64,000 nt of DNA, taken from NCBI GenBank assembly GCA_964437795.1, contig CAYTIC010000001.1, positions 86,864 through 150,863 of the forward strand. The letters run 5' to 3'. The notes under the pieces are model-generated. The model saw only the letters and a list, made by a program, of their open reading frames with translations, ran no database searches and had not been told where the DNA came from. Positions 7,199 to 63,078 of the stretch are shown in pieces. Source of the stretch: an uncultured Dehalococcoidales bacterium (GTDB lineage: Bacteria > Chloroflexota > Dehalococcoidia > GIF9 > UBA5629). Made by a program: the position numbers and the translations under genes. Position 1 is the first letter of the stretch, and each line of letters opens with the position of its first letter.

Positions 7199-7226
7199 TC
7201 GCTCAACTATTAGTATATATTCAATT

Positions 7227-36965: not shown

Positions 36966-36993
36966 ATTAATCTCTCACCAGTTAAATTCTTAG

Positions 36994-37373: not shown

Positions 37374-37457
37374 ACAGTTTCTAAATCTGCCCTGTGCGAC
37401 AGATAATTTATGTCTGAACACCCTGACCGAAAAGCTTCCTCCAATATTTTCAATATA

Positions 37458-39424: not shown

Positions 39425-39504
39425 GCAAACTGACCCGGCAACTGTAGCGAAAATTAAGTCCACTGGATAGCCCAGCCATGGTTAATAATGGCCGGTTGCG
39501 AAAT

Positions 39505-39807
39505 TCATTCTCCCAGTGGTTTGCCGCTGATAAGGTAGAAAATCAGCGACGCAATCGTAAATAATACCGGTACACTCAGGACCGCAGCAATCACTATTAA
39601 AGCCACCAACCAAAAGCCCTTCGGTTTAAATCTCAGTATTACCCCTATTATGCCGAGGACGAGGCCTGCGATAAAGATAAGCAGGCCTATGATGTCCGTA
39701 TCTATACCAAAGTAATGATAGAGCGGAATGACCAGCAGGAATGTGACTATCCCTGCCGCCATTATTATCAGGGCCGCGGTTATCAGCTTTCCAAATCGCT
39801 TCACCAT
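39505..39807 (-). CDS. small integral membrane protein (3 TM)
   Basis: 100 aa, almost entirely hydrophobic helices. Confidence 0.5.
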   Translation of the reverse strand: MVKRFGKLITAALIIMAAGIVTFLLVIPLYHYFGIDTDIIGLLIFIAGLVLGIIGVILRFKPKGFWLVALIVIAAVLSVPVLFTIASLIFYLISGKPLGE

Positions 39808-39868
39808 ATCATCCTTCCTGTTATCTTTCTAATTACCTTCTTCCGCCTGTAACACGAAAACGGTATAT

Positions 39869-40489
39869 CTAATCAGGACGCAGCCCTTTCATGATAACGA
39901 TAAAGGCTTTTTCAGTTTCTTTGATCAGATCAAACCGGCCTTTGACCAGGCACCAATCGTAGATCACGCCACGAACACAACGGAGCATAATGCGCGTGAT
40001 ATCGTCCCTGCTCAAATCCGTACGCAGTTCTCCCCTGTCCTGCCCTTCCTCAACCAGCTTCTGAAGTATCTTGAATAAGGCCCTTTTTTCTGAGGCGATG
40101 GAGGCGGTTTTTTTATTCAGGTTTATCTGAGCACGATAGCTCACCTGGATAATGTCGATTCCCATGCCGTTGCTGTAATCGACGGCCTTCCTTCCCAACA
40201 GAAACAGCTTCTCCACTACGCTTTTGTGCGGGCCCAACTCAGCCGTCGCGTATTTGTCATATATTTGGTCAGCGACCAAAAAGAGATCTATTATGACCTG
40301 GTCTTTGGACTTGAAATGATCGTAGAAAGCGCCTTTGGAGACACCGGCCTTCTCGCAGATGTCATCCACGGTAACTTTATCGTATCCCTTCGAATAGAAA
40401 AGCTTCAACGCCGTGTTGTAGATCTTCTGGTGAGTGGCAATTGCCTGCTTCTTGCGGCTGTTTATCTCATTTCTAGTCATTACAAGCAA
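39869..40489 (-). CDS. TetR/AcrR-family transcriptional regulator
   Basis: IYNTALKLFYSKGYDKVTVDDICEKAGVSKGAFYDHFKSKDQV, the canonical TetR HTH. Confidence 0.85.
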   Translation of the reverse strand: MLVMTRNEINSRKKQAIATHQKIYNTALKLFYSKGYDKVTVDDICEKAGVSKGAFYDHFKSKDQVIIDLFLVADQIYDKYATAELGPHKSVVEKLFLLGRKAVDYSNGMGIDIIQVSYRAQINLNKKTASIASEKRALFKILQKLVEEGQDRGELRTDLSRDDITRIMLRCVRGVIYDWCLVKGRFDLIKETEKAFIVIMKGLRPD

Positions 40490-45138: not shown

Positions 45139-46284
45139 TCAGCCGGATGCGTTATCGACGATTTCAACTACATCCAGTATTTGAATTGAATCGCTCGCGC
45201 CCAGGGTGAGCACGGCGTCTTCAAACATCGTCATGCAATAGGGGCATGAAACGGCCAATACCTGTGCCCCGCTTTCCATCGCCTGCCTGACGCGCAGTTC
45301 GGCGAACCGCTCCTCTTTCTTCGATTCCAACCAGAGGCCGCCGGCGCAACCGCCGCAGCATAATGAATCTGCGTGATGGTCGGACATTTCTACCAGGTCC
45401 ACCCCCGGGATGCTGTGCAAAACATTGCGGGGCTCATCATAAATGCCCTGATACCTGCCCAGGCAGCAGGAATCGTGATAGGCAACCTTCTTTTGCGGGC
45501 CCTTGCCCAATTTAACGCTGCCCGCTTTTATCAGCTCATCCAAATACCGGACTATATGGATTACCTCGAAACCGCCGCCGAGCTCAGGGTATTCGTCCTT
45601 TAAAGTGTTGTAACAGTGCGGCGACCCTACCAATATCCTCTTGACGCCCGCAGACTTCAGTGTCTCTATGTTATTCGATGCCAGGCTGGTAAAAAGGCCC
45701 TCCTTGCCCGCCTTCCGTATGCTTTCCCCGCAGCAGGACAGGCCTTTATCGATTATGCCGAAATCCACGTTGGCCCTGCGCAGGACATTTATCATTGACA
45801 CGGCTGTTCTTCGGCACCTGACGTCATAAGCCTGATAGCAGCAAACATACATCAGCATGTCGGTATTTGTTGAATACGCAGCGACATTCAGGCCCCTTAA
45901 CCATTCAGTGCGCGCTTCGTCCGGCTCGCCCAGCGGATTGCCCACACCGGCCAGGTTGGAGGCCACCGTGCGCAGGGAGCGGGGTATCGCGCCCGCGCCT
46001 ACTTCAGAGATGACCCTTCTGAGCGACCTGATCATGCGGGGTATGTCCACGCCGCGCGGACAGGCCTGTGCGCACGATCTGCACCCCACACACTTCCATA
46101 TCTCCTCGTTACCGAAATCGATCAATCCCAGCTGGGCCTGATGCAGCAGGCTGCGAACACCCAGATGCCCGCCTATGTTCCACGGACATACAGCTGTGCA
46201 CAACCCGCACTGAAAACAGTGATCGAGGTCTGCGCCGCCCTGCTCCTTTATGGCATCAGTGATTTCCGGTGATATATCCACCAT
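45139..46284 (-). CDS. soluble HdrD-like (fused HdrC+HdrB) Fe-S/CCG-domain protein occupying the QmoC position
   Basis: 381 aa. CFQCGLCTAVCP and CVGCRSCAQACP, then two CCG-type Cys-rich regions (VCCYQ..SCCGES..PHC; DSCCLG..LCCGGCAGG..SCPYC). No hydrophobic segment. Confidence 0.7.
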   Translation of the reverse strand: MVDISPEITDAIKEQGGADLDHCFQCGLCTAVCPWNIGGHLGVRSLLHQAQLGLIDFGNEEIWKCVGCRSCAQACPRGVDIPRMIRSLRRVISEVGAGAIPRSLRTVASNLAGVGNPLGEPDEARTEWLRGLNVAAYSTNTDMLMYVCCYQAYDVRCRRTAVSMINVLRRANVDFGIIDKGLSCCGESIRKAGKEGLFTSLASNNIETLKSAGVKRILVGSPHCYNTLKDEYPELGGGFEVIHIVRYLDELIKAGSVKLGKGPQKKVAYHDSCCLGRYQGIYDEPRNVLHSIPGVDLVEMSDHHADSLCCGGCAGGLWLESKKEERFAELRVRQAMESGAQVLAVSCPYCMTMFEDAVLTLGASDSIQILDVVEIVDNASG

Positions 46285-46314
46285 CTACGCTGTATTCCTT
46301 GCGATCATCTGCAT

Positions 46315-48444
46315 TTACAGATCCTTATACGGGTTCGGCCCGATCTTCTCAATCCCGGTTAGAAACTCATCCAGAATGCCCGGCAGTGTGCCGTATTCCT
46401 CCACGGAAAGCTGCACTACACGCAGCCGCTCCGGCTCCAGCGCCAGCTTGTTAAGGGTATCCTGCATCTTTTGAATCCTGTCGTCGGCCAGCTCGCTGCC
46501 GGTTATGTTATGGCACTGATAGTCTCCACCGTATTTGCAGCCCACCATGATGATGCCGTCGAAACCGCTGGAGAGCGCATCGACGATCCAGACCATATTT
46601 ATCGATCCCAGGCACCTCACGGGTATGACCCTGATAAAGGGATTGAAGGCCATGCGCCCGGTACAGGCCATGTCCAGGGCGGGGTAAGCATCGTTTTCGC
46701 ACAAAAATGCTAGTATGCGCGGCTTGTCCTCTTCCGCCCCCGGCATCTGAATTGACTTGATCATTGATCCTATAATGTCAACCGAATAGTCGGCAAACGA
46801 AATAATCCTCTCAGGACACGCGCCCATACAGATGCCGCACCTCCTGCACCGCGTGGGATTGGGCAGCGGATTATACTTATCGTCCTCGTCATACATGCCG
46901 AAAGGGCACTCTTCAGTGCATCTCTTGCACTGGGTGCACCTGGCCATATAGAGGTCGGGGTAACTGGTATCGCCGGCCCTGGGATGCACTGACTCTCCCC
47001 TGGCAACCATTTCCACACATTGAATGGCCTTGACCACGGCGCCGTTTGCATCTTCACAGCTTGACAGGCTGTCTAAGGGTTGCCTGGCACAGCCGGCTGA
47101 GTAGACGCCTGTACGGCGTGTCTCATAGGGAAAACAGATAAAATGCGAATCCGGGAACCCGTATTTAAGCTCCGGCAATTCCGCGCCCTGCCTGTAGGCC
47201 AGGCTGAGCGCCGGCGGGGGTGACGGTTCAATGCCCGCAGCCAGGACCACCAGGTCGGCCTGTACAGTCACCTTCTCGCCCAAGAGAAGGTCCTGCATTT
47301 CAACCATAATGCCGTTTTCAGCGGCGGCCACTCCGGTTATCTCCGCCCTGGCCAGGTAAACAGACCCCGACTCCTGCGTATTTCGATAGAACTCCTCGTA
47401 CAGGGAAGGCGCGCGCATGTCCTTGTAGAAAATATAGGCCTTTGAATCGGCATTGCTCTTCGTTACGTAAACCGCCTGCTTGAGGGAGGTCAGGCAGCAG
47501 AAGGACGAGCAATACGGCAGATGGCTGTCGTCACGCTGCCCGGCGCACTGAATAAACGCCACGCTTTTTACAGGCTTGCCGTCCGACGGCCTTTTGATCA
47601 CGCCGTCGAAGGCCAATTGCTCCATTTGTACGTTGGTGATGATATCCGGGTGACTGCCGAAACCCAGGTGCGCCAGGCGTTCGGCATTATACGGCTGAAA
47701 TCCGGTGGCTTGAATAATGGAGCCCACCCTCAAAGATACGGCGCCGCTCGGACTCCTGAGAGAAACATCGAACATACCCGGCGAACCCTCGATCTTCTCG
47801 ACCTCCGCCGACTTGAATACCCTGATCAGCGGGTCGTTTTCCAGGGCGGCGGCCAGCGCTACAATCCCGGTGTCCTCCGGTTCCCGGTACGGGGGATGCT
47901 TTGGATATCCACGATATAGTTTCGTCATCCACCCGCCTAAAGAAGGGCTCTTTTCCACCAGGCACACCTCGTATCCGGCCCCGGCGGCGCCCAGCGCGGC
48001 GGTGATCCCAGTTATACCGCCCCCTATGACCAAAATAGTCTTGCTGATCTCGGGCAAATACGGTACCGCAGGAGATGTTTTGGCGATCCCGGCGAGGCCC
48101 ATCCTCAGGCAATCTTCCGCCATCATCTGCGTATCCGGATCGCCAGGCAGGTGGGACCAGGCCACCTGCTCCCTTAAATTCACCCTTTCCAGGATCACAG
48201 AACTATCGAAGGTGAAACATCCCTGTTTAACACGTGGCGAGCAGGCGCCTATCACCAGCCTGCAAGGACTGCCGGCAATGTCATCATCTATCGATAGCCG
48301 CCCATCTGCGCTGCACAGTGACGGATGGATCCGGCAAATGTCGGCTTTATATTCATTGACCGCCACTTCGCTCAATTTCTCGAGTGAAAGGGCCTCCCCG
48401 ATGCCGCACCCGCTGCACAAATATACGGCCAGTTTATTTGCCAT
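46315..48444 (-). CDS. qmoB: QmoB-like HdrA-family flavoprotein with C-terminal MvhD-like domain
   Basis: Start set at MANKLAVYLCSGCG. FAD fold ILVIGGGITGITAA, ferredoxin motifs CTQCKRCTEECP and CRRCGICMGACP, and the C-terminal ILAFLCENDAYPA...VRCLG...GCKYGGDYQCH (MvhD type). Confidence 0.75.
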   Translation of the reverse strand: MANKLAVYLCSGCGIGEALSLEKLSEVAVNEYKADICRIHPSLCSADGRLSIDDDIAGSPCRLVIGACSPRVKQGCFTFDSSVILERVNLREQVAWSHLPGDPDTQMMAEDCLRMGLAGIAKTSPAVPYLPEISKTILVIGGGITGITAALGAAGAGYEVCLVEKSPSLGGWMTKLYRGYPKHPPYREPEDTGIVALAAALENDPLIRVFKSAEVEKIEGSPGMFDVSLRSPSGAVSLRVGSIIQATGFQPYNAERLAHLGFGSHPDIITNVQMEQLAFDGVIKRPSDGKPVKSVAFIQCAGQRDDSHLPYCSSFCCLTSLKQAVYVTKSNADSKAYIFYKDMRAPSLYEEFYRNTQESGSVYLARAEITGVAAAENGIMVEMQDLLLGEKVTVQADLVVLAAGIEPSPPPALSLAYRQGAELPELKYGFPDSHFICFPYETRRTGVYSAGCARQPLDSLSSCEDANGAVVKAIQCVEMVARGESVHPRAGDTSYPDLYMARCTQCKRCTEECPFGMYDEDDKYNPLPNPTRCRRCGICMGACPERIISFADYSVDIIGSMIKSIQMPGAEEDKPRILAFLCENDAYPALDMACTGRMAFNPFIRVIPVRCLGSINMVWIVDALSSGFDGIIMVGCKYGGDYQCHNITGSELADDRIQKMQDTLNKLALEPERLRVVQLSVEEYGTLPGILDEFLTGIEKIGPNPYKDL

Positions 48445-49705
48445 TTGACCGCCCTTTCCTGACCGACCCAATAGCCTTCAAAACTGCGCCCGTCGCGTCT
48501 CTGACCGACGATCCCACGTCCATCGGCCTTTTCACGCATCCCGCGGCGTAAATACCCGCCAGGTCGGAGACCATAAATCCGCAGGAGTCTTTGCCGGGTC
48601 CGGCGGGCAGCCAGTCCGTCGCTGCAGGGACCATTCCCGTGGCCAGCACCACCATGTCCACCCTTTGCCTGACCATTTTTCCCTGCTCTGTATCCTCAGC
48701 TTCGACGAAAAGGTCGTTTGTTGCGGGGTCCTGCTTTATGCGTGATACCTTCCCGCGAAGGAACGACACCCCTTGCATATCCTGAATCCGACGGTAAAAA
48801 TCCTCCTGCGTACCCTGGGCCCGCAAGTCGATGTAATAGATGGCCACCCGGGCATCCGGATTGTGCTCCTTAATATAAGTTGCCTGCTTAAGCGAAGCCA
48901 TGCAGCAGACGCCCGAACAGTAGGACAGGTGGTTTACGTCCCGGGAGCCCGCACACTGCACGAATGCGATTGAGGATACCTCTTTTCCGTCCGACGGACG
49001 CACCAGGCGCCCGTCACGCAGCCCGGCGCCTGATGCCAGCCTCTCCATCATCATATTGGTGATTACATTGGGATAAACGCCGAAGCCGAGCCGGTTCAGC
49101 CGGGCTGCATCATAAGATTCCCAACCCGTGGTCACTATAATCGATCTGCAATTGACCGTGACCACCTGCTCTTCCATCTGCAGGTCGATAGCCCCGTAAC
49201 GGCAGGCGGAAACGCATTTTGCGCAATCGCTGCCCGTACAGGCATCTTTATCCACGGTATATGTCGGAGGATATGCCTGCACATGCGGCAGGTAAATAGC
49301 TTTAGTGTTGTCCCACCCGTAGTTGAAATCGTTCGGCCTTTGGACCGGGCAAACCGTTTCACATTCGCCGCAGGCCGTGCAATTATCGTTCACCATGCGC
49401 GGCAGCAGCCGGACCGATACCTTGAAGTCTCCCTCACTTCCCTCAACAGCCTCCACCATAGCCATGGTGAAAACCCTGATTCCCCGATTAACCTTGATCC
49501 GCTTGAAATTGAGCTCGAGGCCGCAGGCCGGGGGACATAGTTTGGGGAAATAGCGGCTCATCCTGACGGCCTTCCCTCCCAGGAAAGGCTCCTTCTCAAG
49601 CAGGATGATCTTGTAACCTATCTCGACCGCCTCAACCGCCGCGGCTATCCCGCTTACACCGCCGCCCACTACCAGGATATCGGTTGAAACAGCAGTCTGT
49701 TGCAT
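48434..49705 (-). CDS. qmoA: QmoA-like HdrA-family flavoprotein
   Basis: 423 aa. ILVVGGGVSGIAAA, CTACGECETVCP, FVQCAGSRD..SYCSGVCC. Confidence 0.75.
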   Translation of the reverse strand: MQQTAVSTDILVVGGGVSGIAAAVEAVEIGYKIILLEKEPFLGGKAVRMSRYFPKLCPPACGLELNFKRIKVNRGIRVFTMAMVEAVEGSEGDFKVSVRLLPRMVNDNCTACGECETVCPVQRPNDFNYGWDNTKAIYLPHVQAYPPTYTVDKDACTGSDCAKCVSACRYGAIDLQMEEQVVTVNCRSIIVTTGWESYDAARLNRLGFGVYPNVITNMMMERLASGAGLRDGRLVRPSDGKEVSSIAFVQCAGSRDVNHLSYCSGVCCMASLKQATYIKEHNPDARVAIYYIDLRAQGTQEDFYRRIQDMQGVSFLRGKVSRIKQDPATNDLFVEAEDTEQGKMVRQRVDMVVLATGMVPAATDWLPAGPGKDSCGFMVSDLAGIYAAGCVKRPMDVGSSVRDATGAVLKAIGSVRKGRSNGK

Positions 49706-49720
49706 AGAGCGCCAGCGTTA

Positions 49721-51610
49721 TCAGCCGACCAATGGGATAACGTCCTTCTTAAATACCGACCATTTGCCGGAAGCGGGGTCCCACCTGCAATTGACGAAAC
49801 ACTTCCAGTTGCTGTCGTCCAGCCGGGGTACATCCGCCCGGAAATAGTAGCCGGGCCACCTGGTCTCTTCCCTGAAGAGCACCGAACGGATATGTGATTC
49901 GGCCTGCCACAGCCGGTGCTGGTTTTCCCAGCAGCGCATGAGCTCGTGGAGGTTTTCGGCCGCCAGTTTTTCCGCATCTTCGCGCAGGAAATCCAGCAAT
50001 TCAAGGCCCTTCTCCAACGAGAGCTTATTGGTCGTAAACTGGGTAGTTGCGCCCCCTGCGTACTCATCCATGATCTTCTGCAGCCGTACCATGAACTGCT
50101 TCGGCTTGAGATAATTTTCGCTGACATCCGGATTGTCGGTAAGTTTGCCGTACTGGTCAAACAGTTCAAGCGGTTTGAAAAGGCGTTTCTTAAGCGCTTC
50201 AACCTGCGCAGTATCGATGTTCGGCTGCTCCGGATGATCGACTATATAGGCGATGGATGCTTTAGCAGCGATCCTGCCTTCGCAATGCGAGCCGTCGGAG
50301 AACTTATGGCTGGATGCGCCGGACGCGTCGCCTGCGCAGAATATCCCTTTCACGGTGGCCATACGGTTATAACCCCAAAAATACTCTTTGGGTGACAGGT
50401 CTTCCGGTCCGCTGACCCATGCGCCCGAAGCGCCTGAATGCGAACCTATGAAATATGGTTCGCAGGCCTGTATTTCTGAGGGCTTTTCCTCGGGCTGCGT
50501 ATTGGTCCCCGCCCAGAGAATGGCCTGCGATATTGTCATATCCAGAAAATCTTCCCACGCTTCCGATTCGACCTCTTTCATGCGTTTTCGCCGTTCTTTT
50601 TCATCGCTGATGGCGGAGAGCATCCTGGCAATTGCTTCATCAGTTCGCATGTACATAGGGCCCTTGCCTTCATTTTGGTCCAGCATCATCAGGTAATTTC
50701 GCAGGTTGGCGGGGATGGGCTTGGACGATCCGTACGGCCCCCAGTTCTCCAGGTCTTTCTTGCGCTCCGACATGTAATCCTGGCCGAGCGCATTGGTAGC
50801 TATAGACTTGAAAAGAAGGAACCATGCGCCGACGGGCCCATAGGCGTCTTTGAAACGAACCGGGATAAAACGCACTTCCTGGCACGTCATCTCGCAGCCG
50901 CTCTTCAAAGTAAAATAGGCGCTTGAACCGCTGTTGAAGGGGGGATACCAGCTCCTTCCCTGCCCTTCACCTACCGAGCGGGGCCGGAATATGTGCACTG
51001 CACCGCCCATGGCCACCAGGACCGCTTTAGCCTTGAATATGTAGAACTTGTTCTCGCGTGTGCTGAAGCCGACAGCTCCTGCAACCCTGTCTCCATCGAT
51101 AAGCGGCTCTACTATGAATACCCGCTCATAGATATTATTTTCGCCAATAGTTGCCAGCGCGTTGCGGGCCGCCTCTGCAACAATGTTTTTATACGATTCA
51201 CCGTTGATCATGACCTGCCAGCCGCCCTCGAATACATAGTCGCCTTTATCGTCTTTCCAGATGGGAAGGCCCCACTTCTCGAAGAGGTGCACCGTGCTGT
51301 CCACGTGCCGCGCGATATCGTATACAAGGTCCTCGCGGGAGATGCCCATCAGGTCGTTCCTGACATAGCGCACGTAGTCTTCCGGGGTCTTGTCCCTGCT
51401 CTTCATGCCGACATACATATTGAGAGCGGAAAGCCCCTGTGCGACCGCGCCGCTGCGCTCGATGGCAGCCTTGTCGACCAGCGTCACCTTCAGGTTGTGC
51501 CTCTTCGCCCAGTAAGCGGCTTCGACCGCGGCGCCGCAGGCCGCCATGCCGCCGCCGATGATAAGCAGGTCGGTGTTTACTTCTACCGTCTGTATTTCTG
51601 ACATGAACAA
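49721..51610 (-). CDS. aprA: adenylylsulfate (APS) reductase alpha subunit
   Basis: 629 aa. DLLIIGGGMAACGAAVEA FAD fold, with length and sequence typical of AprA, directly after aprB. The true start may be the ATG at 51604 (MSEIQTV). Confidence 0.85.
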   Translation of the reverse strand: MFMSEIQTVEVNTDLLIIGGGMAACGAAVEAAYWAKRHNLKVTLVDKAAIERSGAVAQGLSALNMYVGMKSRDKTPEDYVRYVRNDLMGISREDLVYDIARHVDSTVHLFEKWGLPIWKDDKGDYVFEGGWQVMINGESYKNIVAEAARNALATIGENNIYERVFIVEPLIDGDRVAGAVGFSTRENKFYIFKAKAVLVAMGGAVHIFRPRSVGEGQGRSWYPPFNSGSSAYFTLKSGCEMTCQEVRFIPVRFKDAYGPVGAWFLLFKSIATNALGQDYMSERKKDLENWGPYGSSKPIPANLRNYLMMLDQNEGKGPMYMRTDEAIARMLSAISDEKERRKRMKEVESEAWEDFLDMTISQAILWAGTNTQPEEKPSEIQACEPYFIGSHSGASGAWVSGPEDLSPKEYFWGYNRMATVKGIFCAGDASGASSHKFSDGSHCEGRIAAKASIAYIVDHPEQPNIDTAQVEALKKRLFKPLELFDQYGKLTDNPDVSENYLKPKQFMVRLQKIMDEYAGGATTQFTTNKLSLEKGLELLDFLREDAEKLAAENLHELMRCWENQHRLWQAESHIRSVLFREETRWPGYYFRADVPRLDDSNWKCFVNCRWDPASGKWSVFKKDVIPLVG

Positions 51611-51623
51611 TATCCCCCGGATT

Positions 51624-52076
51624 TCAGTCCTTTTTTAACGTCGGTAATTTTTCGATGCCCAGTGATTCTGGCTCAGTGAACAACAGCGGGCTTTTCAATT
51701 CGTCAGCCTCAGGCGCTGTATTAAAGCCCCCGTCCGGAACCGCCGAGCCCTCGGGAGTGGTGCGGGTGCGAAACTTAAAGCGCTTGATGGCGCCGTTTCT
51801 GAATTTCACGGTCCAGATGATGCTGTCGCTGCCTCTCAGAGGTGTAACACTCGCTCCAAGGGGCACGAAATCCGCGTATCCCCTGACGGCTATAGCCTGC
51901 TGAGGGCATATCTTTACGCAGCTATAGCATTCCCAGCACATGGAAGGGTCGCGGTTGAATGCCTTCTGCGTCTCTCCATTCAGGGCCATCAGGTCGTTGG
52001 GACAAATGTACTGGCAGGCTGTCTTATCCTTGCCTTTGCAGCCGTCACATTTACTGATGATTACAAAACTCGGCAT
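51624..52076 (-). CDS. aprB: adenylylsulfate (APS) reductase beta subunit
   Basis: 150 aa. Hallmark N-terminus MPSFVIISKCDGCKG, CQYICPNDLM, CWECYSCVKICPQ. Confidence 0.85.
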   Translation of the reverse strand: MPSFVIISKCDGCKGKDKTACQYICPNDLMALNGETQKAFNRDPSMCWECYSCVKICPQQAIAVRGYADFVPLGASVTPLRGSDSIIWTVKFRNGAIKRFKFRTRTTPEGSAVPDGGFNTAPEADELKSPLLFTEPESLGIEKLPTLKKD

Positions 52077-52091
52077 ATCCTTATTCCTTAT

Positions 52092-52916
52092 TTACATATA
52101 GCCCAGGCCGCGCAAGCGTTTCATCATCTTTTCCTTGTCCTGCCGCCGGCCCGCTCTCTCCGTCGTGTGTTCAAGGTCCTGCTCCCAGGCAGGAACGCCC
52201 GGGGCCGCTATGGCGCTGGTGGTCTTTGCTCCCAGCGATCGATAGCCTTTTTCGTACAGTATGCAATAGGGTATTTTAAATACCTGATACGTGTTCCATA
52301 GCTCTCTCTCCGAGAAGTGCAGTATGGGCTTAATGCGCGTATGCTGGGGGATCAGGTAGGCCGCTTCTTTTACCTCGAAATAGTCGTCCTCGGCACGGGC
52401 GTTCTGCTCGTCCCTCCGCAAACCCTGGAAGATCGCCTTGACCCCGTTCTGTTCGATATACACGTTGAACATGACCGTTTTCATCAGGTGATTGCCGGTA
52501 TATGATTCAGCCTCGAAGGGAAATGTATCTTCCTTGTAGTCTATGCGCTTGAGTTCAGCCTGGTTTCTCTCGTTTAAATCCTTGACCTTGACGATGTTAT
52601 TCAGCTTGCCGCCGGCGGCCTTGATAACATCATCGTTGCGCATCCATGTCAGATCCAGCTTCCATTCCGCCGCATAGCGGTCCATGAAATCGTGTATCTC
52701 GTCGAAGGTATCGAACTCGTCTATCGTCATGACTTTGGGGACCTTTATTTTGTCCTCCTGGCAGACCTGGCGAATAATCCACAGCGCAAGCGTGCTGTCC
52801 TTGCCACCCGTCCAGGTGATAGCAAGATCATCCAGCTTAAACTTGCCGAATGACTCCCTGACTATTGCCTTCGACTTGTCGATCAGTCCCGCGCATTCTT
52901 TTTCCATACTGGCCAT
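52092..52916 (-). CDS. CysD-like PP-loop enzyme (PAPS-reductase/sulfate-adenylyltransferase-subunit-2 family)
   Basis: 274 aa. PP-loop ITWTGGKDST, GLRRDE, and a CysD-type C-terminus TTERAGRRQDKEKMMKRLRGLGYM* (compare E. coli CysD ...[26 protein letters not shown], from memory). Confidence 0.65.
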   Translation of the reverse strand: MASMEKECAGLIDKSKAIVRESFGKFKLDDLAITWTGGKDSTLALWIIRQVCQEDKIKVPKVMTIDEFDTFDEIHDFMDRYAAEWKLDLTWMRNDDVIKAAGGKLNNIVKVKDLNERNQAELKRIDYKEDTFPFEAESYTGNHLMKTVMFNVYIEQNGVKAIFQGLRRDEQNARAEDDYFEVKEAAYLIPQHTRIKPILHFSERELWNTYQVFKIPYCILYEKGYRSLGAKTTSAIAAPGVPAWEQDLEHTTERAGRRQDKEKMMKRLRGLGYM

Positions 52917-52932
52917 TATCGGTCCCCCTTTT

Positions 52933-54138
52933 TTACTTTATCCATCTTTTTATCCTTGGTTTGAGCCTGGATTGCAGCCTTACTGTCTCCTTTGAAGACT
53001 GTGCAATATCGTGCAACTCACCCGGGTCGTCCTTGAGGTCATACAGCTCCCAGCGGTCCGGTTCCGCCCTGTAGATCAGCTTCATGTCGCCTTCCCGGCA
53101 GAAATACACATCCTTATTGATGTCGCCGCCTTTGACGCTTTTATTGTCGATGGCCTCACCGAAGGCGCCCTTTTCAACATATGCCCCCACGGGCAGCAGT
53201 GATTGTCCCTGGAAAGACGCCGCCGGATCGATACCGAAAAGGTGGAGAATAGTGGGCGGAATGTCTATGCTGCTGACCAGGCTGGAGCATACACCGCTTG
53301 AATCCGCCCCGTATATCAGCAACGGGACATCGATCAATTCCGCATACAGCTTGTCGTCGTGCGACAGCCCGCCGTGCTCGTTAAACTCATCCCCGTGGTC
53401 GCTGGTCATGATGACGGTGGTGGAATCGAGTATATGCAAATCCTCAAGCGATTTAAATAACGACTGTACGTAAGAATCCACCTCGCGGACGTGCACGTCA
53501 TACAGCCGTTTCAGCAGTGTTACCCTGGCGGGATCCGAGACGTCCCTCTTGAGCAGAGTATCCTCAAACAGCGCATACATCTCGTCCTGGCTGATCTTAA
53601 TTTCGGGGTCTACCATGTCTACATAGCTTCTTTCCGGCATATAAGGCTCATGCACGTCCATGTAATGAAGCCATAAAAAGAACGGAGCATGGTCTTTCTT
53701 CTTTACATAGGACGAAAGCCACTGCACTACCTTGTCATTGATCGTGTAACCCCGCACATATGACAGGCGTTCATCTTCGAGATCGTCGTCCAGGGAGTCA
53801 TAGAACACGTCCCATCCCCGGTCCCAGCCCAGCACGGAGCTGCAATAGGGATTGGAATGGAACCCGGCGGTGTATATGCCGGCTTTTTGCAGTACCTCCG
53901 ATACTATGGAGCGCCGGGGCGCCAAACCTTCGGGCTTACCGTAATCCAGGTAGTACCCCGAGCACAATATGGCGGGAAACGACGCCTGGGTATAAGGACC
54001 GGCGCTCTGGCTCCCGGTAAATACTATGCTGCGGTCTTTGAGGGAGTCGACGAACGGGGTTAATCCCCTGGTATTACCATACAGCCCGAATACATCCTTC
54101 CGGGTTGCATCCAGTGTAATCAAGACAACGTTTTTCAT
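52933..54138 (-). CDS. sulfatase/alkaline-phosphatase-superfamily enzyme without a canonical formylglycine motif
   Basis: 401 aa. NVVLITLDATRKD metal site, MTSDHGDEFNEHG, and a WELYDLKDDPGE tail typical of PF00884. The nucleophile region reads SAGPYTQASFPAILCSG instead of C/S-x-P-x-R-xxxx-TG. Confidence 0.65.
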   Translation of the reverse strand: MKNVVLITLDATRKDVFGLYGNTRGLTPFVDSLKDRSIVFTGSQSAGPYTQASFPAILCSGYYLDYGKPEGLAPRRSIVSEVLQKAGIYTAGFHSNPYCSSVLGWDRGWDVFYDSLDDDLEDERLSYVRGYTINDKVVQWLSSYVKKKDHAPFFLWLHYMDVHEPYMPERSYVDMVDPEIKISQDEMYALFEDTLLKRDVSDPARVTLLKRLYDVHVREVDSYVQSLFKSLEDLHILDSTTVIMTSDHGDEFNEHGGLSHDDKLYAELIDVPLLIYGADSSGVCSSLVSSIDIPPTILHLFGIDPAASFQGQSLLPVGAYVEKGAFGEAIDNKSVKGGDINKDVYFCREGDMKLIYRAEPDRWELYDLKDDPGELHDIAQSSKETVRLQSRLKPRIKRWIK

Positions 54139-54168
54139 AGTGATAATTGATTGAAAAAGGGGCCGGAC

Positions 54169-55497
54169 TTAATATCCCAGCCGTTTCATCCTTGTTTCCA
54201 TCTTCTTCTTTTTATCGGCGCTGCTTGCTGCCGGACGTGCTGCCTGTGTTGCAGGGGCAGACTGGTCGGTGGCTATTTCGCTGGAGGCCTTGCCCTTCAC
54301 CAGCGTCCCGGCCGTGCTGCCGGAAATCGGCCTTGCCTGGGGGTTGAACGCCTCCGGCCCGTACAGCCTGTTCCACATGTCGAGTTTTTCCGAGTCAAGC
54401 TTTCTGCCCTGCAGTCCCGGGTAGTCCGGATCATAGCGGTGGCAGCGGAATGTGCAGTTGCTCAGGCCGTAAGGTGAAAGGGTATCCCTGTGGTTATAGA
54501 AAGGCACTATATATTCCCAGACGATTTCGCCTGTGGTGGTAACTTCGAAGAAACGCCCCATCCCGCCTTCGCACACCAGCGTATTGCCGTTGGGCAGCCG
54601 TTCACAGCCGCCGATATAGGTCGTATTGAAATCTACGGGGTTCTCTTCCCTGAACTCCCACTCGACCTCGTTGGTTTTGGGGTTCACTTCAACGACGCGG
54701 CTGCCGTCCGGCGGGAAGTAATCAACGTTGTACCTGTTGTTATTGAGCACCAGTATGTTGCCGTTATCCAGCAGCGTGGGGTTGTGCGGCATAGAGAGGA
54801 AGCCTTTTCCCCAGCGCCACTTGAAATCGCCGGAACTCCTGTCGATGATAAAAAGGTTGTCGCAGCCGAAAGAACATAACATGATGTCGCCGTTGGGCAA
54901 TTCCTCGAGTGAATTGAGGCCCACCCATGCCAGGCGCATCTGCAGCGGCGCGAAACAATCGAGCTCGAGGTCGAAGTGCTGATAACCCAGCCATTCCCAG
55001 GCTATTTTGCCCTGCGGGGTGATCTCCTGTATTACGTTGCCGTGAAGAGGTATGTCAATGCCGAGGATGCCTTTAGGAGACACGCCGCCCTGCACTTTGG
55101 CGGCTATTTCTTCCGGAATCGGGACGTACTTCATGATAAGCGTATTGCCGTTCTTGCTGCGCTTGCGATCATGGGCGTCCATGTTTTCATCCTCGTATTT
55201 CCAGACCACATTGCCGTCCCAGTCCAGTTCAACGACGCGTTTTGCCACAGTCGGTATCGATGAAGGAGGCGCTCCCACGTCATCCAGGGCACACAGGATA
55301 TTCCCGTTGGGAAGCAGGTCCGCATGCAGGCGCACCCACCCCGGCAGTTTCCAGCGGTGAACGAAACGTCCCTGCATATCGATCAGCCAGGTATTGCCCG
55401 GTACCTGTGTCATTGGGCTGAACAACGTGAAGCCGGGATATGCTTTGTGTGGTTTATACTCGGTAACCGATTGTAATGCTCTTCTTGCGGATGGCAT
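54169..55497 (-). CDS. arylsulfotransferase (ASST)-like beta-propeller protein, cytoplasmic, with a low-complexity linker and a CysD-like C-terminal tail
   Basis: 442 aa with no signal peptide. Repeated blade motifs LPNGNIL, KNGNTLI, LPNGDIML, LDNGNILVLNN and LPNGNTLV recall the Arylsulfotran family. The C-terminal 60 aa are A/S/P/Q-rich and end KKKKMETRMKRLGY*. Confidence 0.55.
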   Translation of the reverse strand: MPSARRALQSVTEYKPHKAYPGFTLFSPMTQVPGNTWLIDMQGRFVHRWKLPGWVRLHADLLPNGNILCALDDVGAPPSSIPTVAKRVVELDWDGNVVWKYEDENMDAHDRKRSKNGNTLIMKYVPIPEEIAAKVQGGVSPKGILGIDIPLHGNVIQEITPQGKIAWEWLGYQHFDLELDCFAPLQMRLAWVGLNSLEELPNGDIMLCSFGCDNLFIIDRSSGDFKWRWGKGFLSMPHNPTLLDNGNILVLNNNRYNVDYFPPDGSRVVEVNPKTNEVEWEFREENPVDFNTTYIGGCERLPNGNTLVCEGGMGRFFEVTTTGEIVWEYIVPFYNHRDTLSPYGLSNCTFRCHRYDPDYPGLQGRKLDSEKLDMWNRLYGPEAFNPQARPISGSTAGTLVKGKASSEIATDQSAPATQAARPAASSADKKKKMETRMKRLGY

Positions 55498-55693: not shown

Positions 55694-56335
55694 TCAATAA
55701 TGAGCTATCAGCCAGGCCGCCGCTTCACCGCGTGTGTGCAGACACACCTTCTTCATCACGTTTCGCATATGCACTTTGACCGTATTCTCCGATATCGAGA
55801 GCGTCGCAGCTATATCCTTATTGACATGGCCTTTGCCGACCAGCGCGAGGACTTCCCTCTCCCTGTTAGTCAATAACGGCACACGGACATGCACCTTTTT
55901 CTGCAGGCTGTCGAACGTATGCAGTACGCTGTTTGCCATTTGCGGGGAAAGCACCAGCTCACCGTCGGCGATCAGGGTAACGGCCTTCACCAGGTTTTCA
56001 AGGGTTATGTCCCGGGTTACATAACCGGACGCTTCGTGATGAATAATCGTGCCCAGGTCCTGTTGCTCTTTGGGCCATCCGAACACGAGTATTTTCACAT
56101 CGGGCATGTCACGGTGGATAAGCGATATCACCTCGTCATAGGTACAGGCCCTTATCTCGGAGTCGATCAGCACCACATCCGGCTTTTCGCGCTGGGCAAT
56201 TTTGACCACCTCGAATCCCGTGCTGCATACTCCCACGACGCGGATGGCCGTGTCGGATTCCAGCAGTTTCGGCAACGCTTTACAAATAATGTCCATAGTA
56301 TCGGCAACTATGAGCTTTACCGCTGTGCTAACCAA
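55694..56335 (-). CDS. NarL/LuxR-type response regulator with an atypical receiver domain
   Basis: Start set at the TTG 8 nt after GGAGG. The C-terminal LTNREREVLALVGKGHVNKDIAATLSISENTVKVHM is a LuxR HTH. The receiver has A-D instead of D-D, keeps VVLIDSE, has VFGWP instead of S/T, and GYVTRD instead of K. Confidence 0.7.
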   Translation of the reverse strand: MVSTAVKLIVADTMDIICKALPKLLESDTAIRVVGVCSTGFEVVKIAQREKPDVVLIDSEIRACTYDEVISLIHRDMPDVKILVFGWPKEQQDLGTIIHHEASGYVTRDITLENLVKAVTLIADGELVLSPQMANSVLHTFDSLQKKVHVRVPLLTNREREVLALVGKGHVNKDIAATLSISENTVKVHMRNVMKKVCLHTRGEAAAWLIAHY

Positions 56336-56531: not shown

Positions 56532-57821
56532 TTGAGCGAAATAAAGCAGAAGTATAAAGTGGGCGGCAGTGGAGCGGTCTTCGTACTCATCATTCTATTC
56601 CTCCTTTATATCCTGAACTTCGCCGACCGGGCCATAGTGGCAATCGTGCTGCAGCCGATGAAGGAAGCGCTGCAGTTGACCGATGCCCAGGCGGGGGCGA
56701 TGCAATCCATTTTCCTGCTGGGGGCAGGTCTGCTGATGATTCCCGGCGCCATCTTTGTAGAAAGGTGGAGCCGCCGCAAGATGCTGGGCATTATGGCCCT
56801 TATCTGGAGCGTGGCCACGTTTGCCACCGGCCTGGGCACAAAATTCTGGCATATCATGTCGGCCCGGTTCGTGGTCGGCATCGGTGAAGCGGGCTATAAC
56901 CCCGGCGGCACCGCCTGGCTGTCCCTGGCTTTTTCCAAGAAGGTCCGGGGCAGGATACTTGGTTTATTCCAATCGGCGGCCCAGGTCGGTATGGCTGTAG
57001 GACTGATAATAGGAGGCCTGATAGTCACGCAGACCGGCGATTGGCGCATGCCGTTTTACATTTTTGCCATACCTGGAATTATATTGGGCATAATCACCTT
57101 CTTTCTGCCCGACTATGCAACGGTAAGGGAAAAAGGCGAAGCCGTTTTCAACAAGAAGTTTTTCTCCGAGGTGCTCGGCCTCTTCAAGATTAAGACGTAT
57201 TCCCTGAACATCATAGCCCAGTGCCTGTTTGCCTTTATCAGCATGACCATTCTGGGCTGGCTGCCCGCCCTGCTCATGAGGGCCTACAATATAGACGCGT
57301 TTCAGGCAGGCACAATTAACGGCCTGACAAGCCTGATAGTCCTGATCGGCGCGCCCCTGGGCGGCTTCCTGGGTGACAGGTGGCAGGCAAAGAAACACGG
57401 GGGCAGAGCTTACTTTATGGTAGTCGCCATGCTTGCTTATGCGATTGCGGCGACACTCATGATACTGTCTACTAATTATTCCCTGACAATCTACATCGTT
57501 ATGGCTTCGCTCGCTTCGTTTTGCTCTGCGCTGGCATTGCCGGGCCTTTTCGCCATCTGGACGGATGTACTGTCGCCCAAACACCGCACCACCGGTATCG
57601 GCATGGGCACCATGATTTCACTTGTCCTGGGCGCTGTGCCGGGACCGTTGTTTGTCGGTGCGGTATCCGATGCCCTGGGCGGAGGGGTCTTCGGCCTGAG
57701 AAGCGCATTCCTGCTGATGATGCCTGCGGCGTTTATAGCCACGATAATGTACTTCGTTATGTCCAGGTACTATCCCGCAGACAGTGCTAACATAAGCGAC
57801 GACGTCCTGGCAGAAAAGTAA
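56532..57821 (+). CDS. major facilitator superfamily transporter (anion:cation-symporter-like)
   Basis: Start set at the TTG after AGGAGGG. LNFADRAIVAIVLQPMKEALQLTDAQAG, and about 12 TM helices. Confidence 0.7.
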   Translation: MSEIKQKYKVGGSGAVFVLIILFLLYILNFADRAIVAIVLQPMKEALQLTDAQAGAMQSIFLLGAGLLMIPGAIFVERWSRRKMLGIMALIWSVATFATGLGTKFWHIMSARFVVGIGEAGYNPGGTAWLSLAFSKKVRGRILGLFQSAAQVGMAVGLIIGGLIVTQTGDWRMPFYIFAIPGIILGIITFFLPDYATVREKGEAVFNKKFFSEVLGLFKIKTYSLNIIAQCLFAFISMTILGWLPALLMRAYNIDAFQAGTINGLTSLIVLIGAPLGGFLGDRWQAKKHGGRAYFMVVAMLAYAIAATLMILSTNYSLTIYIVMASLASFCSALALPGLFAIWTDVLSPKHRTTGIGMGTMISLVLGAVPGPLFVGAVSDALGGGVFGLRSAFLLMMPAAFIATIMYFVMSRYYPADSANISDDVLAEK

Positions 57822-60678: not shown

Positions 60679-63078
60679 TTAAGGCTGTAATATTAGAACC
60701 TGCGATAGTTCGCCTGTAGAAAGGAAATGTGTTGCCACCTGTTGTCCGTTTGCCCACATTTGCGCAAGGTCGCCGTAATACGGGCTTAAGAGCAACCCAG
60801 ATTGGCCGGGCGGACTCATGATAGTCGAGTTTTCCAGATCGGACATGTCCACTATAAGCCTGATGACGCCGCCGGAATCCATGGCATAGGGATTCTTGCT
60901 GTCCCACATGCCCGCATTGATAGTGAACCCATCACCGTTAGTCGGGATGGGGCTGAGGTTATAGAACCCAAGCTTACTGCCGAGGGGATGCTTGAATGTC
61001 ATCTGGTGGACCTTTCCCCATTGCCATTTTGAAGGATCCTGTCCCAGCCTGGCCGACAGCTCCGCTATGGCATCCTTCATGCTTTTCTTTATGATGTCAT
61101 CGCGGGTTTCCCTGATACCGGCCGTCGTGAGGTCATCGTAAAAGGGATTATTGTTATCGTTCACCATAGCGGTGAGCAGCCTGTCCGGAATATATATCTG
61201 GTAATCCTGAGTGATCTCTGCGTTCAATTTCGCACCGACCTTGTTTTCGAACGTATTCTGCACCATATACTTGTAGAACGCGTTGAAAAGCGTGGCCGCC
61301 GGGCTGTTAACGTCGGATGAATAGTTCCAGCCCTTAAACAGGCCCAGTGCCGGCTTCATATCGTCCATGCTGTCGCAGGCGGCCAGTACGAGCGGGACCC
61401 AGTATTGCGCCTCCACCGAGACGTTGTCCAACTGCATTTTCCTGATCTCATCAAAGGTGAACCTGTCCTTGCTCCCGACTATCTGCTGGAAGCGCAGGGC
61501 ACGCTCAATCATCCAGAAGTCAGTGATATGGTAGTCGACTTTTTTCGGGACGTTATTGAAAGACGCCACGTACCCCTGGCTCGGATTTAAATCGTATGGA
61601 AGTTTGTCGAAGGGGACATAGCCGGTCCAATCGTATTTGCCCTCGTCACCCGGCACAGGCAGAGTGCCATCGCCTGTCTTGCGCACGGGCGGGGATGCGA
61701 TATACTGGTAACCTATATTTCCATAAATATCGGCATAGCCGAAATTCAGCGTAGGTGTGCGCACCACGCTTAACGCACTGCGAAACTCATCGAAATTCCT
61801 GGCTTTATCCAACGCGATAAAACCTTCCATGATGCCGAGGTGAGGATGAAGGCCTACCCACATCATGGCGCAGTTGACAGGCGCCCTGGGCATTACATCG
61901 GATATGATAGGGCCATGCCGGGATATCCTGACCCGCAGTTTCTCTTCCCTGATCCCATCCTTACCCTTGACCCTGATGGTCTCATCAACTATCTTGAAAT
62001 TCTTATAACCGTCTTCGGTCAGGTATTGATCAGCGTCGGCGGGGTTTATCTTTTCGATGAAGAAGTCCATCTCGTCTCCCCTGCCGTTGGTGGTGCTCCA
62101 GGCGAAATAACGATTAAGCCCGAGCACGTTGATGGTAGGGGCGCCGGGTATGGAACCTCCCATCACGTCATAGTCGCCGCCCTTAAGGTGCACGAGGTAG
62201 AACAGCGCCGGTATGGTGGGAGCCAGGTCCGGGCTGCCTGTGAAAACGGCCTTCCCCGAAGCAGTACGTTTGCCGGAAAAGATCATCCAGTTGCTGGCGG
62301 CAGTATCCAGGGGGAAGGGACTATTGATATCACCGCTCCCGGTCACCGCGCCGGCAACCCCCGTCGCAGGACGATCAACACCGGATGTGGCAGGCGGAGG
62401 CGCGGCACCCGGACCGGATATCGTGGGCGCATCGGCGGGCACAATGGGGATGATCGTTTTCAGTATTTCGCTTCCGGCTGAGTTGCCGATTTGATTGAGA
62501 ATGAGCTCCGTATCCTTGGAACGGTTGAGGCTGTAGGCCATGAGTATCCCGCAGACCATGGTATCCTGGGGTTTCCATGTTTGAGGCTTAAACCCGAGGA
62601 TGGTGTATTCACTGGGAAGGTACCTGGCATTATCTATATAGGCATTGACCCCGCGGGCATAGGCATCCACTATGGATTTAGCGCCCGGTTCCAGTCCTGA
62701 ATATTCTTCTTCGGCGGCGCGGTAGAACCCGATCGTTCTGAAGTATTTATCCGTGTCAAGCATTATGTCGCCCAGCACCGACGAAAGCTCACCCCTTCCT
62801 GCCAGACGCGTCATATCCATCTGGAACATCCGCTCGCGGGCGGTGATATAACCCTGTGCGAAAAAGAGGTCCTCCTCGTTCTGAGCAAAGATATGTGGTA
62901 TGCCGTGCTCGTCGGTGCGTACTTCAACCCTGGCCGAAAGACCTTTTATGGTCTCGGTGCCGGAATATGCGGGCTGAGGAAGCCTGAATACTACCTGCAC
63001 GGCTATTGCTGCTATTATGACTAAAACAAGTATGACGCTCAGCGATATAATCAGTGCCTTGCCCTTTTTCGATTTCAC
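60679..63078 (-). CDS. penicillin-amidase (S45 Ntn-hydrolase) family protein, N-terminally membrane-anchored
   Basis: 799 aa. N-terminal TM ALIISLSVILVLVIIAAIAV. A Pro/Ala/Gly-rich spacer is followed by ...DTAA|SNWMIFSGKRTASG, the autoprocessing site with Ser nucleophile typical of PGA/AHL acylases. Confidence 0.75.
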   Translation of the reverse strand: MKSKKGKALIISLSVILVLVIIAAIAVQVVFRLPQPAYSGTETIKGLSARVEVRTDEHGIPHIFAQNEEDLFFAQGYITARERMFQMDMTRLAGRGELSSVLGDIMLDTDKYFRTIGFYRAAEEEYSGLEPGAKSIVDAYARGVNAYIDNARYLPSEYTILGFKPQTWKPQDTMVCGILMAYSLNRSKDTELILNQIGNSAGSEILKTIIPIVPADAPTISGPGAAPPPATSGVDRPATGVAGAVTGSGDINSPFPLDTAASNWMIFSGKRTASGKAVFTGSPDLAPTIPALFYLVHLKGGDYDVMGGSIPGAPTINVLGLNRYFAWSTTNGRGDEMDFFIEKINPADADQYLTEDGYKNFKIVDETIRVKGKDGIREEKLRVRISRHGPIISDVMPRAPVNCAMMWVGLHPHLGIMEGFIALDKARNFDEFRSALSVVRTPTLNFGYADIYGNIGYQYIASPPVRKTGDGTLPVPGDEGKYDWTGYVPFDKLPYDLNPSQGYVASFNNVPKKVDYHITDFWMIERALRFQQIVGSKDRFTFDEIRKMQLDNVSVEAQYWVPLVLAACDSMDDMKPALGLFKGWNYSSDVNSPAATLFNAFYKYMVQNTFENKVGAKLNAEITQDYQIYIPDRLLTAMVNDNNNPFYDDLTTAGIRETRDDIIKKSMKDAIAELSARLGQDPSKWQWGKVHQMTFKHPLGSKLGFYNLSPIPTNGDGFTINAGMWDSKNPYAMDSGGVIRLIVDMSDLENSTIMSPPGQSGLLLSPYYGDLAQMWANGQQVATHFLSTGELSQVLILQP

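Follow-up and report, generated by a model that had tools for sequence, protein, structure and literature searches.

Activation of sulfate costs sulfate reducers two ATP equivalents. For sulfate-poor, organic-rich sediments, it has been suggested that organic sulfur sustains much of the sulfate reduction, with hydrolytic sulfatases assumed as the route (PMC6129605). Arylsulfate sulfotransferases (ASTs) transfer sulfuryl groups in a ping-pong mechanism through a sulfo-His and accept Tyr-containing peptides, and their physiological role is called poorly understood in a review (PMC13426309). In CysH-type reductases, the Cys of the C-terminal tail attacks the sulfur of adenosine 5'-phosphosulfate (APS) and AMP is released (PMC1175818; bioRxiv 10.64898/2026.09.04.749436). 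Here, we analyzed a 64-kb stretch of DNA (hereafter the window) from an uncultured Dehalococcoidales bacterium (GenBank assembly GCA_964437795.1, contig CAYTIC010000001.1, positions 86,864 to 150,863). It carries an operon in which an AST-type propeller, a sulfatase-fold enzyme and a CysD-like PP-loop enzyme, called the hub below, precede aprBA, qmoAB and an hdrD-like gene. An earlier note on this DNA, made without database searches, had read the operon as a candidate organosulfate-to-APS respiratory system. We refer to the three extra enzymes, with the genes that accompany them in other genomes, as the module.

Operon architecture and conservation of the module

The eight co-directional minus-strand open reading frames (ORFs) that the earlier note had described as one tightly spaced series (55497-45139, gaps of -11 to +30 nt) were all present, and their coordinates, spacing and domains agree with the Pfam and NCBIfam matches. 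In the order of the operon, they encode the ASST-like (AST-type) propeller of 442 aa (54169-55497; PF14269 1.2e-12, PF05935 3.4e-11), the sulfatase-fold enzyme of 401 aa (52933-54138; PF00884 8.5e-41), the CysD-like PP-loop hub of 274 aa (52092-52916; PF01507 6.4e-24), AprB (51624-52076; TIGR02060 199.6 bits for a cut-off of 135.65, and PF12139) and AprA (49721-51604; TIGR02061 909.5 bits for a cut-off of 641.75, with an alternative TTG start at 51610). They are followed by a QmoA-like, HdrA-type flavoprotein with Fe-S (48434-49705; partial match of 375 bits to the HdrA2 model, FAD and Fer4 domains), a QmoB-like, HdrA-type protein with a C-terminal MvhD/FlpD domain (46315-48444; PF02662 3.5e-37, FAD and Fer4 domains) and a soluble HdrD-like protein of 381 aa, which is an HdrC/HdrB fusion (45139-46284; PF02754 2.6e-29, two CCG stretches and a Fer4 dicluster). 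The successive junctions measure +30, +16, +15, about +19, +15, -11 and +30 nt. The start of aprA is most likely the ATG at 51604, according to the sequence and to the gene calls on an identical metagenome contig, and that of qmoB is most likely the ATG at 48444, which gives the 11-nt overlap with the qmoA stop. No terminator-like site was seen at the junction between the CysD-like gene and aprB. The counts of promoter-like and terminator-like sites were not above shuffled expectation and speak neither for nor against internal transcript boundaries. At 54161-54182 (minus strand), a weak hairpin with a T-run extends over the stop codon of this operon's propeller gene. Although it did not exceed chance expectation, it could be a partial terminator or attenuator between this gene and the remaining operon. 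Since the same operon recurs in independent assemblies (loci L001, L005/L006, L007, L090-L092 and L173), it is real and not an assembly chimera. The closest named genome carrying it is a Dehalococcoidia metagenome-assembled genome (MAG; L007).

By anchoring on the hub, we gathered 80 metagenome loci, and clustered and annotated the neighboring ORFs. We call complete those 19 loci in which the hub is flanked by 4 kb or more in each direction. Among these, the ATP sulfurylase Sat occurred in 16 and AprA in 3; each complete locus thus had Sat or AprA, and none had both (0/19). At least one ASST-like, sulfatase-like or NPP-like gene was present in all 19, importers of the Tct, tripartite ATP-independent periplasmic (TRAP) or ATP-binding cassette (ABC) type in 16/19 and a TauE exporter in 13/19. 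Overall, the most frequent neighbor of the hub was Sat (46 loci). The module is conserved across phyla, and its hub is always adjacent to Sat or AprBA. APS is the one compound that Sat and AprBA have in common. Most likely, therefore, the module produces or consumes it, and we consider a functional coupling of the module to APS very likely. An involvement of 3'-phosphoadenosine 5'-phosphosulfate (PAPS) was considered and rejected, with cysC found neither in the window nor in any module locus (~1 Mb).

The recurrent architecture comprises an importer (Tct, TRAP or ABC), a regulator (GntR, LuxR or TetR), between one and four ASST-like genes, and the sulfatase-like gene followed by the hub. Sat precedes the sulfatase-like gene or else follows the hub, and a small protein with two transmembrane (TM) helices and then TauE come further along. 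In a variant without the sulfatase-like gene, the order is ASST-like, hub, Sat, TauE. The small protein (~90 aa, two predicted TM helices, no Pfam match) always precedes TauE in the sat-type modules (16 loci; for example L112:3310-3561, L115:9309-9584 and L119:17232-17555). We see in it a possible accessory subunit of the exporter; the window lacks it.

The trio was found both with and without aprBA, and most modules lack aprBA, which makes the aprBA link lineage-specific. Synteny of the trio with aprBA, on which the earlier note had staked its proposal, extends to several assemblies and to a second, more distant lineage (L104), in which AprBA follows the hub without qmo genes. By eye, the L104 gene string (L104:3154-16896) consists of the module, aprBA, the TRAP genes DctPQM, a DapA-like gene and FAD oxidoreductases, together with a gene similar to proline racemases and hydroxyproline epimerases, in surroundings resembling hydroxyproline catabolism. 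This context hints at a sulfated substrate of the amino-acid type.

The rest of the operon has close relatives among sulfate reducers. AprA, whose placement the earlier note had left to be established, is of the sulfate-reducer lineage judging from its nearest relatives, which are found in Chloroflexota MAGs (76-81% identity) and then in the Gram-positive sulfate reducer Desulfofundulus (75%). In a sister Chloroflexota locus (L171), a histidine kinase/response regulator pair is followed by sat, aprB, aprA, qmoA, qmoB and hdrD, so that the three extra enzymes of the window hold the place of sat, as had been proposed. In L172, aprBA-qmoAB stands beside dsrC/dsrAB. The AprBA-QmoAB-HdrD proteins of the window are 55-80% identical to those of the sister Chloroflexota operon, with 62% for the QmoA-like and 55% for the HdrD-like protein compared to their L171 homologs. 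The HdrD-like protein reached 49 bits with the QmoC model (cut-off 300); it is soluble, has two CCG domains and stands in place of the membrane-bound QmoC. The AprBA-Qmo part is an ordinary Gram-positive/Chloroflexota variant.

Directly upstream of the operon, the LuxR-type regulator and the divergent major facilitator superfamily (MFS) transporter previously noticed were recovered by their domains. The first is a NarL/LuxR-type response regulator with REC and GerE domains (55694-56335, minus strand; PF00072, PF00196; start of the longest ORF at 56395). It is 76-96% identical within the clade of the window, and its cluster also adjoins sat-type modules (L098, L115 and L123). A role as an ancestral part of the apr operon was rejected for this regulator, which is only 30% identical to that of L171 and accompanies sat-type modules as well. 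The second is similar to anion:cation symporters and OATP (56532-57821, plus strand; PF07690 1.4e-62); its longest ORF starts at 56397, and the gene call on the identical contig gives 429 aa. It adjoins the operon also in L005/L006, L090 and L092, and is a candidate importer of an organic anion substrate. Because sister operons have sat at this position and the window regulator belongs to a module-type cluster, the operon of the window is a fusion of a portable module with its own regulator and transporter to aprBA-qmoAB-hdrD, sat having been lost at the junction.

Module enzymes and their shared C-terminal tag

The hub carries an invariant PP-loop (T36-G-G-K-D-S41) and a C-terminal ER.GR..DKE...LR.LGYM motif in common with a bona fide CysD from Ilyobacter. 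It scored 74.8 bits with the CysD model PRK05253 (cut-off 195) and 47.8 bits with TIGR02039 (cut-off 396.6), is ~26-30% identical to true CysD and misses the CysD-specific insertions. In fold, it lies at an equal distance from APS/PAPS reductases, FAD synthase and CysD, with 4bwv and 2goy as the top Foldseek matches. These comparisons place the hub in a separate branch of the PAPS-reductase fold. The label "CysD-like" holds for the PP-loop and the tail, but not for the branch of the fold, the score or a CysN partner: a tblastn search with Ilyobacter CysN gave no match in the window or in 91 module loci (~1.0 Mb in total). More than 2,500 proteins make up the hub family. Identity is ~80% between Chloroflexota and Desulfobacteraceae MAGs, and the homologs are all annotated merely as "PAPS reductase family protein". 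In the structure model, the last ~50 residues have a predicted local distance difference test score (pLDDT) of 42-56 and form a predicted flexible arm that ends in ...RLRGLGYM. In PDB 1zun chain A, 204 residues are modeled out of the 325 of the deposited CysD sequence, and the C-terminal tail of genuine CysD may also be disordered.

Stand-alone homologs of the hub (~40% identity, not full modules) were found on Desulfolutivibrio plasmids beside tatA and in several haloarchaea. One of them (L088:8911-9882, ~39% identity) lies on plasmid pNATPE01 of Natrinema pellirubrum and has the LGYM tail. No cultured host of the full module was found, the homologs on plasmids of cultured organisms being stand-alone.

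The first route of the earlier note was release of sulfate followed by its adenylylation by the CysD-like enzyme. In such a scheme, the AST-like and sulfatase-like enzymes would free sulfate and the hub would be a CysN-independent ATP sulfurylase replacing Sat. The PP-loop, the CysD-type C-terminus and CysD as best NCBIfam match of the hub fit with it, as do the strong sulfatase HMM match and the absence of sat from the window. Pfam on essentially every ORF and tblastn over the 64 kb detected neither sat nor any gene for CysN, CysC, Dsr proteins, TauE or a sulfatase maturase (anSME or FGE); for sat, cysN and dsr, this bears out what the earlier note had read. However, canonical Sat stands beside the hub in 16/19 complete loci, which would give these organisms two redundant ATP sulfurylases, and the usual presence of Sat led us to reject the hub as a replacement for it. 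Moreover, the hub is far under the CysD cut-off without any CysN in the window or the module loci, the sulfatase-fold enzyme lacks the formylglycine motif as well as a maturase in the window, and ASTs transfer sulfuryl groups but do not hydrolyze them. This route is therefore disfavored, and we regard it as improbable. We propose instead that the hub would convert AMP and a sulfuryl group held on a protein to APS, and the reverse.

The sulfatase-fold enzyme matched PF00884 with 140.7 bits and has an SGSH_C-like C-terminal subdomain. Its T50-Q-A-S-F stretch aligns to the C/S-x-P-x-R formylglycine motif of 5g2v. Across 52 sequences of the family, T50, H163, D247 and H248 were 100% conserved and D10, R13, H158 and H255 at least 95% conserved, and a [CS]xPxR motif was present in only one member. 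As Thr50 replaces the motif, is conserved as Thr, and leaves the motif to this single member, the protein is an intact enzyme of the alkaline phosphatase superfamily with a Thr nucleophile, and not a formylglycine hydrolase. The previous "sulfatase-superfamily" label is right for the PF00884 fold but not for a formylglycine hydrolase, with Thr in 52/52 sequences. In arylsulfatase A, a Ser in place of formylglycine traps the sulfo-enzyme. For this reason, the Thr enzyme is expected to transfer and not to hydrolyze, and we propose that it would act as a non-hydrolytic sulfuryl or phosphoryl transferase.

The phosphoryl option leads to another explanation, in which the chemistry of the module concerns nucleotides or phosphoesters and the link to sulfur is indirect. 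The hub would adenylylate a substrate other than sulfate, or Tyr tags (Tyr-AMP), the Thr enzyme and its NPP-like companions would process phosphodiesters, and the adjacency of Sat or AprBA would reflect handling of AMP, pyrophosphate or adenylates, or regulation. Indeed, among proteins of solved structure, the hub matches the adenylyltransferase domain of FAD synthase best in sequence, and the Thr-nucleophile enzymes EptA, LtaS and NPP act on phosphorus, the EptA structures being matched by the sulfatase-fold enzyme at ~1e-8. An NPP-like protein with the same C-terminal tag as the propellers occurs in 6 loci, and a terminal Tyr is a classic AMPylation site. By contrast, the exclusive coupling to two enzymes that share APS (19/19) is hard to explain in this way, the AST-type propeller keeps its sulfo-His nucleophile, and TauE-family exporters of sulfur oxyanions recur around the modules. 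We judge this explanation improbable.

For the propeller, the hidden Markov models of the AST/ASST families PF14269 (48 bits, cut-off 27) and PF05935 (43 bits, cut-off 24) were matched, and not another propeller family, a possibility raised in the earlier note. The protein consists of a six-bladed domain (residues 1-~380), a disordered linker (~394-427) and a C-terminal tag ending in ...RMKRLGY-COOH. In the AlphaFold2 (AF2) model, the overall pLDDT was 85, with values above 90 in the blades and a disordered linker and tail. The best Foldseek matches were Cpz4 (9kf4, 6e-20) and EcAST (3ets, 1e-13). The catalytic His436 of EcAST aligns to H238 (hhalign probability 90.9%), which is invariant in 46 homologs, and Asn358 of EcAST to the invariant N195; His252 is only tentatively paired with H109, which lies outside the aligned region. 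Thus, the "ASST-like" label stands for the fold and the catalytic His, but the pocket is remodeled at the positions of His356 and Arg374. Other invariant residues (H47, R300, R351 and R354) may substitute for the missing pocket residues. Neither a signal peptide nor an N-terminal beta-sandwich domain was seen in the sequence or the AF2 model, no dsb genes were found near the propeller gene in the window scans, and the propeller is predicted to be cytoplasmic. The propeller family has more than 7,000 matches. A scan of species genomes anchored on the propeller, which served as a negative control with little gene context, mostly returned tail-less paralogs without partner genes; such genes accompanied only a minority of the family members.

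The module proteins share a C-terminal tag. Propellers associated with the partner genes have a disordered linker before their C-terminal R-[LM]-x-x-L-G-Y-COOH, which is nearly invariant, and the hub ends in ...R-L-R-x-L-G-Y-M, with LGYM in 80/81 copies. An LGY end was found in 29 ASST-like copies and in 7 of 625 other complete ORFs of the module loci, namely all NPP-like proteins (6/6) and one MarR-like regulator. The LGY-tailed propellers accompany the Thr enzyme in 25/26 loci. The tagged NPP-like proteins (Pfam Phosphodiest), which have no homolog in the window, lie inside sat-type modules and carry a linker and ...R-L-x-x-L-G-Y (L009:1474-2955, L114:10914-12452, L116:11057-12535, L119:11056-12534, L142:1489-3189 and L143:3925-5382). 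Two MarR-like regulators stand beside modules: L100:10210-10683 ends in ...DRLELLGY and L104:940-1434 (minus strand) in ...ITYLGYEE. From these two instances, the tag may also be used in regulation. A different propeller tail (...SGKVF[VI][RK]NIMMN.I) is confined to TctABC/GntR-type loci, where it was found in ASST-like genes of L131, L132, L134, L139, L144, L145, L147, L148, L150-L153, L156, L160, L167 and L169. Four unrelated protein families of the module share the LGY tag, which implies that they bind the same receptor or undergo the same covalent chemistry at the terminal Tyr. That the tagged Tyr arms are sulfuryl carriers is a tentative assignment, which we rate below even.

Proposed sulfuryl relay

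The model that best accounts for these observations is a relay in which sulfuryl groups would pass, without hydrolysis, from imported sulfate esters to AMP and supply AprBA with APS; we give it an even chance. It corresponds to the second route of the earlier note, the direct transfer of a sulfuryl group to an adenylate, which stays viable. In this relay, an organic sulfate ester would be imported and its sulfuryl group captured covalently instead of being hydrolyzed, as sulfo-His238 of the propeller and/or sulfo-Thr50 of the Thr enzyme. Covalent carriage on Thr50 would follow from the inability of a Thr or Ser nucleophile to eliminate sulfate as formylglycine does. The sulfuryl group would then be handed to the terminal Tyr of the flexible R-L-x-x-L-G-Y arm, and the hub would move it onto AMP to give APS, a step that would be the oxygen analogue, in reverse, of the first half-reaction of CysH-type APS reductase. 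AprBA would reduce APS to sulfite and AMP with electrons delivered via QmoAB-HdrD, so that the sulfate ester would be respired as an acceptor and the ATP needed to activate sulfate would be saved. In the sat-linked versions, Sat would convert APS to ATP and sulfate, and sulfate would leave through TauE. The wider reading, in which the module in general performs an energy-conserving, non-hydrolytic desulfation with a Tyr-arm relay to the hub and yields ATP via Sat or respiration via AprBA, is plausible, though we rate it somewhat below even.

By analogy, the AST His that is kept, the invariant Thr50 with an intact metal site and the precedent of a tail nucleophile in the same fold are consistent with this relay. 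The surroundings of the modules, with importers, GntR, LuxR or TetR regulators and TauE exporters, suggest a catabolic context.

Several points weigh against the relay. Energetically, the formation of APS from an ordinary ester and AMP is uphill, as ester hydrolysis yields about -9 kcal/mol and that of APS about -19 kcal/mol. It must therefore be pulled by AprBA or Sat, and this is a weak point of the model. Alkaline-phosphatase-superfamily enzymes with a Thr nucleophile, and the NPP-like partner, usually attack phosphorus and not sulfur, and the best solved sequence relative of the hub is the PAPS domain of FAD synthase. In the propeller, the AST pocket residues are not conserved, with G193 at the position of EcAST His356 and F211, a variable position, at that of Arg374. 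As for the tag, true CysD carries the same GY[MF] tail, so that its role could be that of a lid or docking peptide instead of a carrier. In addition, 22 extra tandem ASST-like copies are tail-less, a second conserved propeller tail (SGKVFVRNIMMN.I) is found in loci without the Thr enzyme (14/14), and neither the propeller tail nor the hub tail was docked in the AF2 single-chain models. By sequence, the flux could run in either direction. Finally, the haloarchaeal hub homolog of L088 lies in an agl-type glycosylation cluster (aglF, aglM, glycosyltransferases and a flippase), which suggests biosynthetic sulfation.

The last point belongs to a reading in which APS is consumed. APS, made by Sat from sulfate or, in the window, by AprBA from sulfite, would donate its sulfuryl group via the hub and the Tyr arms, and the AST-type or Thr enzymes would sulfate an imported or endogenous acceptor independently of PAPS, for detoxification, for activation of a hydroxyl as leaving group or for biosynthesis. 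Sat most commonly works towards APS, and with no cysC in any locus, the donor would be APS and not PAPS. Cpz4, the closest solved relative of the propeller, is a biosynthetic sulfotransferase, the tandem ASST-like paralogs could mirror a range of acceptors, and the TauE/TSUP family includes uptake systems. The agl context of the haloarchaeal homolog fits as well. However, the binding-protein-dependent importers and the GntR, LuxR and TetR regulators look catabolic, and the organism would miss the ATP obtainable through Sat. In the window, AprBA would need to work in the oxidative direction, although the sister operons are linked to sat or dsr and are of the sulfate-reducer type, and a downstream user of the sulfated product is not evident. 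Overall, we consider the consumption of APS for sulfation unlikely, and retain the relay towards APS as the working model.

No published description of such a cluster or pathway was found in full-text literature searches, and the earlier note likewise knew of no described system of this composition. If the relay operates as proposed, APS would be obtained directly from sulfate esters, which would alter the energetics of sulfur respiration in sulfate-poor, organic-rich sediments and would represent a new route by which sulfur enters dissimilatory cycling in anoxic sediments. Its Sat branch would amount to substrate-level phosphorylation from a sulfate ester. It would also give cytoplasmic AST-type enzymes a first physiological role, and assign roles to the more than 2,500 members of a family annotated as "PAPS reductase family proteins", as well as to sulfatase-fold enzymes of the branch without formylglycine. 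The shared tag would be a new principle of assembly or carriage, or possibly a case of functional protein tyrosine sulfation in bacteria. At present, "sulfatases" and "CysD/PAPS reductases" of this kind carry wrong annotations in sediment metagenomes, with inferences on the sulfur cycle distorted as a consequence.

Window surroundings and comparison with known systems

The flanks of the operon in the window are rich in genes for CoA ligases, thiolases, short-chain dehydrogenases/reductases (SDRs) and acyl-CoA dehydrogenases. Just upstream of the MFS/operon region, a large gene of the penicillin amidase family (Ntn hydrolase; 60679-63078, minus strand; PF01804 664 bits) lies beside SDR and CoA-ligase genes. 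Two stretches, 4001-8000 and 36001-40000, have a lower G+C content (0.43-0.47 compared to ~0.55 elsewhere) and may be acquired islands. An Acyl_transf_3 gene lies in the first stretch; a PadR regulator and a URO-D-like gene are in the second. The 367-aa product of 25081-26184 (minus strand) carries a 2x[4Fe-4S] ferredoxin domain at its C-terminus, with no further confident domain; given that the genome is from Dehalococcoidia, it could be similar to reductive dehalogenases or to QueG.

Compared to the canonical sat-aprBA-qmoAB-hdrCB/hdrD operon, as in L171 and Desulfofundulus, the window operon has AprB, AprA, QmoA, QmoB and a soluble CCG protein in the same order. It differs in that the sat slot is filled by three unrelated enzymes, with a regulator and a transporter of their own.

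The propeller shares six blades, the catalytic His and the Asn358 equivalent with EcAST (3ELQ/3ETS) and with Cpz4 of Streptomyces (9KF4). EcAST-type enzymes are periplasmic, with an N-terminal beta-sandwich and the partners DsbL/DsbI, whereas the window propeller is without these features. In contrast to the known ASTs, it adds a disordered linker and the R-L-x-x-L-G-Y tag, and is coupled in the genome to a PAPS-reductase-fold enzyme and to APS enzymes. With the type I formylglycine sulfatases (PF00884, SulfAtlas S1), the Thr enzyme has in common the fold, the metal ligands D10/D247/H248 and the His158/His163 motif. Unlike them, it has an invariant Thr within GPYTQASFP and no C/S-x-P-x-R, and a maturase is missing from the window.

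The hub resembles two systems. Like CysD of the GTP-coupled CysD-CysN ATP sulfurylase, it has the PP-loop and the C-terminal ER.GR..DKE...LR.LGY[MF] motif, but it is without CysN and usually stands beside Sat, the other kind of ATP sulfurylase. With the CysH-type APS/PAPS reductases, it has in common the fold and a flexible C-terminal tail with a conserved potential nucleophile. This nucleophile is a Tyr (LGYM) and not a Cys (ECGLH), and thioredoxin-dependent reduction is not part of the scheme. In addition, the hub keeps the full PP-loop TGGKDS, as CysD does, and its proposed reaction would be a sulfuryl exchange and not a reduction.

At the level of gene clusters, the modules follow the same logic as the TauE-containing islands for organosulfonates (taurine, isethionate, sulfoacetate), with an importer that depends on a binding protein, a regulator (GntR-type or other), desulfonating or desulfating enzymes and a TauE/SafE exporter through which the inorganic sulfur product leaves. 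In these islands, C-S sulfonates are converted to sulfite via Xsc or glycyl-radical enzymes, whereas the modules described here have enzymes of the sulfuryl-transfer type and, as the coupled step, Sat or AprBA acting on APS.

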